A stretch of 41,699 nt of DNA from Thermoplasmata archaeon (GCA_019594305.1 JAFDTZ010000002.1:1-41699); one strand, 5' to 3'. Shown: positions 5,540 through 41,133, numbered from the stretch's first letter. Numbers and translations are program-made. Notes: a model not told the origin generated them from the letters alone.

Positions 5540-5731
5540 ACCTTATCTTCTGACGAATACATGTTATTAGATGTGTGAGATATTACGGAGAGAAATAAAA
5601 TTTCCTATCTGTTTCAATGACCCCGATGAACTTGATCCCCTCAGTTGAATGCTTATTATTACTGAAGAAAGCGTCATCATCGGTGAAAATTTAAATAGGC
5701 TCCTTAGTGTATCTTCCACCGAGGTAAAAAG

Positions 5732-6934
5732 ATGAATGCATTTCACACGGCCTCGGAAGATGATATACGTAAGGGAAGGACGACGGATGTATACTTCAAA
5801 AACGCCATGAAGATATTTGAGGCAAAGGGGTTGGGGGGCGAAAGTGTGGTAGCGGAATTCACAACCACATCGCTCCCGGAGGACGGAACGTGGGGTGTGT
5901 TCGTGGGCTTGGACGATGTACTCTCTCTCTTGGAAGGGCTACCGGTAGACCTCTATTCCCTCCCGGAAGGCACCATATTCAGACCCAGGGATACGCAGGG
6001 TGTGCTCACACCCGTTATGTTCCTAGAGGGTCCTTACAAAGAGTTCTGCATCTATGAAACCCCCTTGCTCGGGTTTATATGTCACCCCTCGGGCATCACC
6101 ACTAAAGCGGCCCGTGTTAAAAAAGCAGCTGGCGACGCCGGTGTAATGTCATTCGGTATTAGGAGGATGCACCCGGCCATAGCACCATCCATAGACCGCT
6201 CGGCTTACGTAGGCGGATGTGATGCTATCTCGTGTATAGCCGGGGCCGAAGAAGTGGGCGTGGAGCCCACGGGAACAATGCCCCATTCACTTACGATAAT
6301 ATTCGGATCCCCTGAAGATGCTTTTAGAGCCTACCATGAGGTGCTCCCTGAAGATATTAAACGTATAGCCTTGGTAGATACCTATCATGATGAAACTCTT
6401 GAAACCTTCATGGCATCGGAAGCCGTCGGCGATAAGTTGTACGGTGTGAGGCTTGACACGCCCTCATCCCGAAGAGGTGATTTGATCAAGATAGTACAGG
6501 AGGTAAAGTGGGAGATGGAGGTAAGAGGTATCGATGCGACTATAATCACCTCCGGTGGGATGAACGAATACAACATTCCGCCTTTAAAGAAGGCCGGTGT
6601 AACTTCTTTCGGTGTGGGTACCAGCGTTTCAAACGCGCGCACCATCAACTTTGCAATGGACATCGTTGAAAAAGAAGGAGAACCGGCTGCTAAAAGGGGT
6701 AAATTCAGCGGAAAAAAGAAAGTTTTCAGATGTCCCGAATGCCTCGCATACAAAAACCTTCCATGGAACACCACGGCCGCCCCGACTTGCACCTGCGGCG
6801 TAGAGATGGAACCGATGCTGAAAAGATACTTGAGAAAGGGCGTCCCCACTAAAGAGAGACCCCCGGTCTCCGAACTGAGGAATAAACAGCTCTTACAACT
6901 CGCAAAGGCGGAGGCACCATGGTTGGAAGGTTAA
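5732..6934 (+). CDS. pncB: Nicotinate phosphoribosyltransferase, archaeal type II PRTase with a C-terminal zinc ribbon
   Basis: The N-terminus has RTTDVYF. The length (~400 aa) and overall pattern match archaeal NAPRTase. The C-terminus reads CPEC...CTCG. The neighbouring nicotinamidase gene supports the call. GAGGT lies 7 nt upstream of the ATG. Confidence 0.7.
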   Translation: MNAFHTASEDDIRKGRTTDVYFKNAMKIFEAKGLGGESVVAEFTTTSLPEDGTWGVFVGLDDVLSLLEGLPVDLYSLPEGTIFRPRDTQGVLTPVMFLEGPYKEFCIYETPLLGFICHPSGITTKAARVKKAAGDAGVMSFGIRRMHPAIAPSIDRSAYVGGCDAISCIAGAEEVGVEPTGTMPHSLTIIFGSPEDAFRAYHEVLPEDIKRIALVDTYHDETLETFMASEAVGDKLYGVRLDTPSSRRGDLIKIVQEVKWEMEVRGIDATIITSGGMNEYNIPPLKKAGVTSFGVGTSVSNARTINFAMDIVEKEGEPAAKRGKFSGKKKVFRCPECLAYKNLPWNTTAAPTCTCGVEMEPMLKRYLRKGVPTKERPPVSELRNKQLLQLAKAEAPWLEG

Positions 6935-38070: not shown

Positions 38071-38328
38071 TCATTCTCTCTCTACAACCAAACGATATGC
38101 CTTCGATATGCCTGCGGTTTTGCTTATTCTGTCTATCTGGATTAATCGGCCCTTCTTAATATCTCCGTGTTTTTCGATAAGCTGTTTAAGTGCGGGATCC
38201 GCTTTAAGTATTTTCGGTAGCTGATCCTTTCTAGCGTCCAGTTTTTCCAATATCTCTTCCTCATCTTCTTCGGGAACGAGATGGTGTACGGGTACTAAGG
38301 CATGTTTCATCACGTTCAGGCTACCCAT
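38071..38328 (-). CDS. rpoH: DNA-directed RNA polymerase subunit H (Rpb5-like)
   Basis: Motifs HALVPVHHLV, LPKI and the C-terminal GRLIQIDR...AYRLVV are present. It is the first gene of the rpo operon. The start is 38328 or the Met at 38310. Confidence 0.85.
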   Translation of the reverse strand: MGSLNVMKHALVPVHHLVPEEDEEEILEKLDARKDQLPKILKADPALKQLIEKHGDIKKGRLIQIDRISKTAGISKAYRLVVERE

Positions 38329-38446
38329 GTTGTGCCCCCATTTCTTATTTTATAACTATCCATAATGCATTCTCTCCATATGTCGGCATCTATATTTAAC
38401 AACCATCTTACCAAGGCGGTACATGCCCAAGTGGGCCTGTGGGGAT

Positions 38447-38475
38447 TTTCGGGACACCCCTGATAGGTTATCCTA
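38447..38475 (-). other. Putative T-loop intron of tRNA-Lys (~29 nt; after position 57 or 58)
   Basis: The insert TAGGATAACCTATCAGGGGTGTCCCGAAA lies between TTCGA and AT of a TTCGAAT T-loop. It contains the internal hairpin TAGG-ATAA-CCTA. Confidence 0.6.
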
Positions 38476-38518
38476 TCGAACCCCAGACCACCTGGTTAAA
38501 AGCCAGATGCTCTATCCA

Positions 38519-38548
38519 GGGAAAAAGCCTATTTGCCCTCTCCTACCT
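38519..38548 (-). other. Putative D-loop intron of tRNA-Lys (~30 nt; junction ambiguous by 3 nt)
   Basis: The insert AGGTAGGAGAGGGCAAATAGGCTTTTTCCC lies between D-loop AGCC and TGGATA. Because AGG and TGG flank it, the boundaries could shift to 38516..38545. Confidence 0.6.
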
Positions 38549-38604
38549 GGCTGAGCTACAGGCCCGTGGTTTACGCAAGCGGTCTAGTTTCTAAATGTAT
38601 GTAC

Positions 38605-38612
38605 TATTTAAA
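38605..38612 (-). promoter_or_regulatory. Putative TATA box for tRNA-Lys (and possibly the downstream rpo operon)
   Basis: The minus strand reads TTTAAATA about 40 nt upstream of the tRNA 5' end. Confidence 0.3.
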
Positions 38613-38682
38613 AGTTCCCCACCAAAGAGCCTTTAAAACTCCTTTTTAGTGTAAATACTTTGACAATAAGTACTTAAGCAAA

Positions 38683-40849: not shown

Positions 40850-41015
40850 GCGGGGGTAGCGCAGGAATCTTCGATTCCTCCAACACGCAAATTGTATCCA
40901 CAATTTGCGGGTCAACGTGGAAAGGAATTTCCACTAACCCGCTTAACTCGCTCAAACTATTTCGCTCCTCAAGCGGGGGTAGCGCAGGAATTAAAAATTC
41001 CTCCTAACTCCCCGC
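40850..41015 (+). repeat. Hairpin-rich array carrying two 19-nt copies of a motif whose first 11 nt equal the 5' end of the downstream tRNA-Leu
   Basis: GCGGGGGTAGCGCAGGAAT occurs at 40850-40868 and 40973-40991, each capped by a hairpin (AGGAAT-CTTCG-ATTCCT and AGGAATT-AAA-AATTCCT) followed by CC. Between the copies are a 10-bp hairpin (40886-40909) and a 6+7-bp hairpin with a GGAA loop (40907-40942). GCGGGGGTAGC occurs again at 41036, the tRNA 5' end. Confidence 0.6.
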
Positions 41016-41035
41016 TTTCTCATTCGCATTCGAAG

Positions 41036-41120
41036 CGCGGGGGTAGCCAAGCATGGCCAACGGCGATAGACTCAAGATCTATTCCCATAGGGGTCCGAGG
41101 GTTCAAATCCCTTCCCCCGC
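41036..41120 (+). tRNA. tRNA-Leu (anticodon CAA), class II with a long variable arm, no intron; CCA is not encoded
   Basis: The sequence parses as GCGGGGG-TA-GCCAAGCATGGCCAACGGC-G-ATAGA-CTCAAGA-TCTAT-TCCCATAGGGGTC-(C)GAGGG-TTCAAAT-CCCTT-CCCCCGC-A. Confidence 0.9.
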
Positions 41121-41133
41121 ATTATTTTATTTT
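41121..41133 (+). terminator. Oligo-T tract immediately after tRNA-Leu
   Basis: The sequence ttattttattttt directly follows the discriminator base. Archaeal RNAP terminates at T-runs. A GGGG...CCCC hairpin plus ctttttc follows at ~41144-41171. Confidence 0.35.

Follow-up and report, generated by a model that had tools for sequence, protein, structure and literature searches.

A 134-nt locus on the minus strand of a 41,699-nt stretch of Thermoplasmata archaeon DNA (GCA_019594305.1, JAFDTZ010000002.1:1-41699; here called the window, at its full length) is very probably a functional, single-locus tRNA-Lys(UUU) gene, the transcript of which would lose two protein-spliced introns of the bulge-helix-bulge (BHB) type, one from the D-loop and one from the T-loop. 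Its parts are as follows (MFE, minimum free energy):

38432..38565, minus strand: complete tRNA-Lys(UUU) gene, 134 nt, three exons and two introns (sequence read, parser, BHB scan, ARAGORN on the spliced 74-mer).
38545..38565, minus strand: exon 1, 21 nt, tRNA nucleotides 1-20 (GGGCCTG, U8 and A9, D-stem GCTC, D-loop AGCCAGGT).
38514..38544, minus strand: intron 1, 31 nt, in the D-loop at 20/21, sequence AGGAGAGGGCAAATAGGCTTTTTCCCTGGAT (BHB scan, MFE fold, covariation in alignment A1).
38475..38513, minus strand: exon 2, 39 nt, nucleotides 21-59 (A21, D-stem GAGC, TCTGG-CTTTTAA-CCAGG, variable loop TGGTC, T-stem TGGGG, T-loop TTCGAT).
38498..38500, minus strand: anticodon TTT (Lys), inside an unbroken 7-nt loop, CTTTTAA.
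38446..38474, minus strand: intron 2, 29 nt, in the T-loop at 59/60, sequence AGGATAACCTATCAGGGGTGTCCCGAAAA (top BHB-scan match, MFE fold, covariation in alignment A2).
38432..38445, minus strand: exon 3, 14 nt (U60, T-stem CCCCA, acceptor CAGGCCC, discriminator A73).

Read from 38565 downwards, the first half of the gene is GGGCCTG TA GCTC AGCCAGGT(31 nt)A GAGC A TCTGG CTTTTAA CCAGG, and the remainder to 38432 is TGGTC TGGGG TTCGAT(29 nt)T CCCCA CAGGCCC A. The exons (21+39+14 = 74 nt) form a cloverleaf with stems of 7 bp (acceptor), 4 bp (D), 5 bp (anticodon) and 5 bp (T) and with A as discriminator; CCA is absent from the gene sequence, and the window's tRNA-Lys has no intron at 37/38. Splicing would leave AGCCAGGTA (RNA: AGCCAGGUA) as the mature D-loop and TTCGATT (RNA: UUCGAUU) as the mature T-loop. 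The first-pass annotation of this DNA had proposed a 134-nt minus-strand tRNA-Lys(UUU) with two non-canonical introns, these four stems and an uninterrupted CTTTTAA loop. All of the stems and the loop are present in the sequence, and BHB geometry, covariation and natural intronless alleles agree on the two introns. The junctions it had drawn, AGCC/TGGATA and TTCGA/AT, were a few bases off, the true sites being 20/21 and 59/60; its length of about 29 nt for the T-loop intron is retained, and its D-loop intron of about 30 nt becomes one of 31 nt.

All pairs of 5' and 3' sites in the gene were scanned for a 4-bp central helix (H) with two 3-nt bulges, the cut being placed after the second nucleotide of each bulge. 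The T-loop intron was the best match of the scan and has a strict hBHBh' motif, in which TTCG (38480..38477; U54-G57) pairs in 4/4 positions with CGAA (38451..38448) near the 3' end of the intron, the 5-bp T stem is the exon-side helix h, the intron helix h' has 5 bp, and the bulges are A58-U59-A and A-A-U60. The D-loop intron has the relaxed HBh' form. Here CCAG (38550..38547) pairs in 4/4 positions with CTGG (38519..38516), h' extends over 9 bp, the 5' bulge is G19-U20-A, and the 3' bulge, A-U-A21, lies opposite A14 and G15, both unpaired, forming with them a 2x3 internal loop that the D stem closes. Measured against the strict BHB criterion, the T-loop intron has all three helices and the D-loop intron does not (strict h = 0). 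The BHB motif, which had earlier been sought by eye without success, was therefore found by scanning and folding at both junctions, in its strict form at the T-loop and in its relaxed form at the D-loop. Both motifs were recovered as MFE folds (-19.8 kcal/mol, z = -2.86 for the D arm) and both coexist in the global MFE fold of the 134-mer, and therefore no obligatory order of splicing is implied. An AGCC/GGCT central helix at the D-loop was rejected along with other registers, which broke the BHB rule, were unconserved or mismatched the natural alleles. The insert sizes of 31 and 29 nt exclude a group I or group II intron core, which takes at least about 200 nt.

BHB-like geometry alone is not rare in 83 kb: among about 3.8 million site pairs on both strands of the window, 29 pass the strict criteria and 24 pass relaxed criteria with a 2-nt offset. 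The passing site pairs include both junctions that give back the mature sequence verified in orthologs, and a chance BHB match at both, each junction being set independently by the mature sequence, is very unlikely.

Orthologous genes were located by tRNA-rpoH-rpoB synteny, with rpoH as the anchor. Relatives of the window's RpoB in a collection of species-representative genomes are all Thermoplasmata metagenome-assembled genomes (MAGs), the best being 92% identical, with soda-lake and hypersaline MAGs (including Ca. Natronoplasma and Ca. Halarchaeoplasma) at 72-79% and Methanomassiliicoccales at about 62%. Eighty related loci (L numbers below) were fetched, and tRNA-Lys(UUU) could be dissected in 68 of them, one being 5'-truncated. 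Together with the window (n = 69), 28 genes have the D-loop and T-loop introns (27 relatives besides the window), 13 have D-loop, anticodon-loop and T-loop introns, four have D-loop and anticodon-loop introns, three have the D-loop intron only, five have the T-loop intron only, and 16 are intronless 74-nt genes. The same cut rule places the anticodon-loop introns of the orthologs at the canonical 37/38 site. Three introns (20/21, 37/38 and 59/60) thus occur in 13 Methanomassiliicoccales-like genomes, namely at L014, L018, L019, L020, L024, L032, L039, L023, L025, L029, L041 and L066 (about 2370-2700 in each) and at the 5'-truncated L009 (1-240). In intronless orthologs, L075 for example, the 5' part has the same sequence as exon 1 of the window. 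The intronless orthologs have AGC(C/T)AGGTA as their D-loop and TTCGAAT as their T-loop (TTCGATT in L042). In a sub-clade near the window (L003, 2535-2636; L034, 2535-2638; L068, 2549-2650) exactly the 20/21 intron is missing and the T-loop intron is kept; the D-loop of these genes reads AGCCAGGTA, a natural spliced allele left by clean intron loss. Because these natural intronless alleles agree exactly with the predicted product, the 20/21 and 59/60 sites are confirmed and other registers are excluded.

Junctions elsewhere, either AGCC/30 nt/TGGATA with TTCGA/29 nt/AT or a 29-nt D-loop register, would yield a tRNA of 75-76 nt. ARAGORN accepts the spliced 75-mer too, the MFE calculation draws a 5-bp central helix with a U-A-G bulge, which makes the D-loop register thermodynamically ambiguous by one base, and the 29-nt register also appears in the BHB scan. 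Only 20/21 and 59/60, however, follow the BHB rule in every ortholog (H of 4 bp, cut behind the second bulge nucleotide), and only they reproduce the natural D-loop AGCYAGGTA and T-loop TTCGAAT. In CTAG-type orthologs, the alternative registers give sequences absent from intronless genes. We thus consider them very improbable and retain 20/21 and 59/60.

Two positions in the exons vary among relatives. The discriminator is A73 in the window (38432) and in some of its closest relatives (orthologs in L001-L004, L006 and L034) and G73 in most other Thermoplasmata orthologs. At position 59, the window, L001 and L002 have U and the others A. Intron length varies as well, with a 155-nt AT-rich D-loop intron in L074 (2320-2548) and a T-loop intron of approximately 88 nt in L009 (about 120-215); no Rfam family matched within these two long introns.

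Covariation was scored in fixed-register motif alignments of 33 (D) and 34 (T) distinct sequences, with 500 shuffles and slid partners as controls. For the D motif, 94.8% of cells were paired, compared to 79.1 +/- 1.1% after shuffling (reached in 0/500) and 26-47% with slid partners, and changes on both sides of the helix were seen at 3/4 H pairs and 6/6 h' pairs. The H variants CCAG/CUGG, CUAG/CUAG, GUCG/CGAU, GUAG/CUAC and CCCG/CGGG occur among these sequences. The T motif had 92.0% of cells paired (77.8% shuffled, reached in 0/500; 33-69% slid), with covariation at 5/5 h' pairs and 2/5 T-stem pairs. Covariation scores were 0.438 (D) and 0.436 (T), versus 0.150 and 0.159 in the shuffled alignments (reached in 0/500) and at most 0.171 with slid partners. 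In all 37 parsed D introns, that of the window included, strict h was 0, with A14 and G15 facing the 3' bulge, and in 37/37 parsed T introns, again including the window's, h was 5. Because strict h is absent in the same way from all 37 D introns, the missing outer helix is a conserved property of the D intron and not a sign of decay.

Upstream of the gene lies a conserved sequence that is probably its promoter:

38605..38613, minus strand: TATA-box-like element TTTTAAATA, ending 40 nt upstream of the mature 5' end.

It is preceded by a purine-rich GGGGAAC, and the window and its relatives (L001-L008, L034, L068 and others) share a TATA-like element of the form TTTAAATA/TTTATATA at the same distance, 40-48 nt upstream.

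The gene escaped the tRNA finders. ARAGORN called no tRNA in the 134-mer, whether its intron option was on or off, and called tRNA-Lys(ttt) in the 74-mer spliced in silico. On the whole window, the sole ARAGORN call was tRNA-Leu(CAA) at 41037-41121, which is intronless. Rfam, searched on the window at gathering thresholds and at E <= 1, recovered the tRNA-Leu(CAA) and missed the tRNA-Lys gene; when 38400-38600 was searched alone, the Rfam tRNA model matched the middle exon at 12.9 bits (E = 5.1), and no Rfam intron family matched the locus. A custom T-arm/acceptor scan of the window for further hidden tRNAs gave the Lys and Leu genes as the only credible ones. Among the orthologs, ARAGORN called the intronless ones as tRNA-Lys(ttt) at the syntenic spot and missed every intron-bearing one tested, as did the general Rfam tRNA model.

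That neither ARAGORN nor Rfam recognises the locus would also suit a decayed pseudogene, a tRNA-Lys gene broken by two random insertions and giving no functional tRNA. All 74 exon nucleotides nevertheless form a perfect cloverleaf, the same two insert positions are kept across dozens of species-level genomes, compensatory changes preserve the BHB helices despite diverging intron sequences, and the promoter element is conserved; over such divergence (RpoB identity down to about 55-60%), perfect exons and maintained intron helices would be unexpected in a pseudogene. Decay, which the first-pass annotation had raised as an alternative, is refuted by this conservation: the ortholog states, the covariation, the conserved relaxed form of the D motif and the TATA-like element together exclude it, and we consider it exceedingly improbable.

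For the functional gene, what is established about tRNA splicing in archaea lets us infer which enzymes act and in which order. To recognise BHB motifs, the archaeal splicing endonuclease EndA does not need the mature domain. From the gene's own TATA-type promoter, a precursor of at least 134 nt with two BHB introns would be transcribed. In this precursor, UUCG (T-loop nucleotides 54-57) would pair with the 3'-end CGAA of intron 2 and stack on the T stem to give the canonical hBHBh', and CCAG (D-loop nucleotides 16-18) would pair with the 3'-end CUGG of intron 1 beside the 9-bp intron hairpin to give HBh'. EndA would then cleave each 3-nt bulge behind its second nucleotide, at 20/21 and at 59/60, an RtcB-type ligase would join the three exons, RNase P and RNase Z would trim the ends, and a CCA-adding enzyme would supply CCA. 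The predicted 74-nt tRNA would have AGCCAGGUA as its D-loop and UUCGAUU as its T-loop.

Which EndA could remove the D-loop intron is less straightforward. EndA of the alpha4 and alpha'2 types is reported to cut strict BHB motifs only, and relaxed HBh' or hBH motifs are said to need a loop-bearing (alpha-beta)2 or epsilon2 enzyme (PMC3488258, PMC5829648). A search with M. jannaschii EndA (a query identical to PDB 1A79 over the 171 residues of that chain) returned mostly alpha4 enzymes. The best 120 of 3275 matches of an EndA profile search include enzymes of Methanomassiliicoccales/Thermoplasmata, among them P0185, a 351-aa 'tRNA-intron lyase [Thermoplasmata archaeon]' encoded on CP070751.1 (548040-549095 region; L081 3001-4056). 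This chromosome also carries locus L041, where tRNA-Lys has the full set of three introns, the HBh' D-loop intron included. The relative has an RpoB about 62% identical to that of the window, and a second EndA gene in the L041 genome is possible. P0185 is a single chain of two N+C units, of which unit 2 retains the Tyr/His/Lys triad and unit 1 has lost Tyr and His; this architecture is that of an alpha'2-type EndA. Aligned with two enzymes without loops (M. jannaschii, A. fulgidus) and two with them (S. tokodaii, ARMAN-2), P0185 and P0121 have no insertion at the L1/L2 or L3 site and thus none of the known broad-specificity loops (L1/CSL, L2/ASL, L3). At the L1/L2 site, the loop-bearing enzymes have +11 (S. 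tokodaii) and +7 (ARMAN-2) residues; the L3 site of ARMAN-2 reads NNEWI. No EndA of the haloalkaliphilic clade nearest the window could be assigned among the best 120 of 3275 profile matches. The earlier view that sites of this kind demand an EndA of relaxed specificity would apply to no more than part of the gene. The T-loop intron, with its strict motif, would pose no problem for EndA; the demand extends at most to the D-loop intron, and the L041 genome with its loop-less alpha'2 EndA does not conform to it.

Several observations weigh against a functional gene spliced at both sites. Splicing at either junction is itself deduced from sequence, the D-loop motif falls short of a strict BHB, and the T arm, at -17.7 kcal/mol (z = -0.75), is no more stable than shuffled sequences, so that support for this arm comes from geometry and comparative data, not from energy. 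The window contains no EndA or RtcB gene in its 41.7 kb, and the only EndA that could be tied to a relative with introns is an alpha'2 enzyme lacking the loops. In addition, the L1/L2/L3 loops of EndA are associated in published work with cleavage of relaxed motifs, and the alpha'2 EndA of A. fulgidus cleaved the analogous D-loop HBh' intron of M. kandleri inefficiently (PMC5829648). On the other side stand the directly observed exon/intron anatomy, BHB geometry, covariation, synteny and match to intronless alleles, and the intact Tyr/His/Lys triad in the EndA of the L041 relative, which has the same intron types.

The absence of helix h from the D-loop motif, the lack of known broad-specificity loops in the EndA of the L041 genome and the inefficient cleavage of a very similar D-loop HBh' intron by loop-less enzymes (PMC5829648) could also be taken to mean that the inserts are retained in an expanded tRNA-like RNA, or that the T-loop intron alone is removed and the D-loop insert slowly or conditionally. 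A 31-nt D-loop hairpin, however, would destroy the tertiary interaction of G18/G19 with the T-loop that an elongator tRNA needs. Moreover, it is the features recognised by EndA, the 4-bp H and the 3-nt bulge geometry, that covary or stay constant, not mere hairpin stability, precise loss of the D intron in sub-clades leaves a canonical D-loop, and M. kandleri matures a tRNA with a D-loop intron in vivo despite its loop-less EndA (PMC5829648). We therefore give retention of either insert very little credence and favour removal of both introns.

The tRNA gene is followed immediately downstream by the first gene of the RNA polymerase operon:

38071..38328, minus strand: rpoH, 85 aa (translation of the open reading frame (ORF), RpoH-like motif HALVPVHHLVPEE...QLPKI).

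The order downstream is rpoH, rpoB (unsplit, 1206 aa), rpoA', rpoA'' and NusA, with rpoB, rpoA' and rpoA'' assigned via Pfam; AlaRS, FtsZ, Spt5 and L11 are encoded nearby. Two other structures in the window were recorded. A BHB-like palindrome at 5718-5762 (plus strand; H 4 bp, h 5-7, h' 5-7, in three adjacent registers) overlaps the start of a phosphoribosyltransferase-like ORF (5732-6934) and formally fits EndA substrate criteria; it is probably an ordinary hairpin. A hairpin at 40972-41018 (plus strand; -23.9 kcal/mol, z = -3.86) lies just upstream of the tRNA-Leu(CAA) gene, and its first 11 nt (GCGGGGGTAGC) are a copy of the tRNA-Leu 5' end at 41037. A tRNA-derived fragment, a leader structure and an integration scar are all possible readings of it.

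The kind of intron and both positions are already known in other archaea, and the gene is no new kind of element. The closest parallel is pre-tRNA-Glu(UUC) of M. kandleri, which has a relaxed HBh' intron at 20b/21 and a canonical intron at 37/38 (Kaneta et al. 2018, PMC5829648); the loop-less M. kandleri EndA cuts the HBh' intron poorly in vitro, and the tRNA-Glu is still matured in vivo (PMC5829648). Both are multi-intron genes of euryarchaeal grade with a D-loop intron of the same HBh' type at essentially the same position, with no exon-side helix and with the 5' site in a proper bulge by the intron helix, and both are paired with an EndA without specificity loop, known here from one Thermoplasmata relative. 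They differ in amino acid (Lys, not Glu), in the second intron (59/60 here, 37/38 there) and in the enzyme, an (alpha-beta)2 heterotetramer in M. kandleri and a fused alpha'2-type in the Thermoplasmata relative. Furthermore, the M. kandleri case is a single species, whereas the window's arrangement is conserved across a class. The T-loop intron shares its exact position, 59/60, with that of pre-tRNA-Cys(GCA) of ARMAN-2 (Ca. Micrarchaeum acidiphilum; Fujishima et al. 2011, PMC3239211; Hirata et al. 2012, PMC3488258). In ARMAN-2 the intron is of the relaxed hBH form, for which the ASL loop of the epsilon2 enzyme is needed, whereas the window's is a strict hBHBh' with the T stem as h and, by published criteria, should be cleavable by any archaeal EndA type.

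Multi-intron tRNA genes are well known in Thermoproteales (Sugahara et al. 2008; tRNAscan-SE 2.0 Table S7, PMC8450103). As there, the genes described here have, in non-canonical positions, two or three BHB introns and are invisible to ordinary finders. In Thermoproteales, however, most tRNA genes are affected and EndA is an (alpha-beta)2 enzyme with a Crenarchaea-specific loop, whereas here one gene family is documented and the tested member of the window's lineage has an alpha'2 EndA. Among 144 euryarchaeal genomes, the same Table S7 counts 25 non-canonical introns and, in 6970 tRNA genes, seven with two introns and none with three; three-intron genes were confined to Thermoproteales in that survey (PMC8450103). 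The first-pass annotation had called the gene unusual for a euryarchaeal-type genome, which agrees with the survey (7/6970 two-intron genes) and does not extend to Thermoplasmata, where tRNA-Lys(UUU) commonly carries these introns. For three Methanomassiliicoccales genomes, Table S7 gives six non-canonical introns and one two-intron gene (PMC8450103). This record is from the same class and amounts to one row of counts; it names no gene, gives neither positions nor motif type and includes no evolutionary analysis. The gene may well be the same tRNA-Lys(UUU), since the Methanomassiliicoccus loci L026 and L028 have the D-loop and T-loop form. A 2014 review of multi-intron tRNA lineages lists Crenarchaeota, Nanoarchaeum, M. 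kandleri, M. thermautotrophicus, Korarchaeum and ARMAN and does not include Thermoplasmata (PMC4033280), and a Methanomassiliicoccales comparative-genomics paper makes no mention of tRNA introns. In the literature searched, no description seems to exist of the class-wide conservation, of the forms with three introns or of the pairing with a loop-less alpha'2 EndA.

Introns in tRNA-Lys(UUU) thus appear, from the orthologous loci, as a trait of the Thermoplasmata lineage and not an oddity of one genome. Common ends (AGGA...UCCC plus H) are seen in D introns from both the window clade and Methanomassiliicoccales, and in a rough neighbour-joining tree of RpoB, in which a few long branches are misplaced (the longest ORF there is probably not rpoB) and which is of qualitative use only, intron-bearing clades fall on both sides of intronless ones. 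Because of these shared ends and this distribution, the pattern argues for an old intron pair that would have been lost repeatedly and precisely in several sub-lineages. The occurrence of states with zero, one, two and three introns of one orthologous gene in one class provides a natural series for tRNA intron gain and loss.

The relaxed D-loop intron beside a loop-less alpha'2 EndA in one relative is a modest puzzle. A bolder proposal, possible though doubtful, is that Thermoplasmata lineages in which a loop-less alpha'2 EndA is the sole recognisable splicing endonuclease depend on accurately removing the relaxed HBh' D-loop intron of what is probably their sole tRNA-Lys(UUU), often together with one or two additional introns of the same precursor, by a mechanism outside the 'specificity loop' model. 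If this were true, the D stem and the A14/G15/A21 tertiary core could act as a surrogate for helix h, or an unknown cofactor might take part, and the rule that alpha'2 and alpha4 enzymes cut strict BHB motifs only would fail for a whole archaeal class. The co-occurrence of the relaxed D motif and a loop-less alpha'2 EndA in at least one genome is a testable challenge to the model of EndA/intron co-evolution. In Thermoplasmata genomes and MAGs annotated by ARAGORN and the general Rfam model, the AAA-decoding lysine tRNA would seem missing, which distorts statistics on tRNA complement and genome completeness. The window's gene is therefore both a warning for annotation and a tractable test case for the substrate specificity of EndA.

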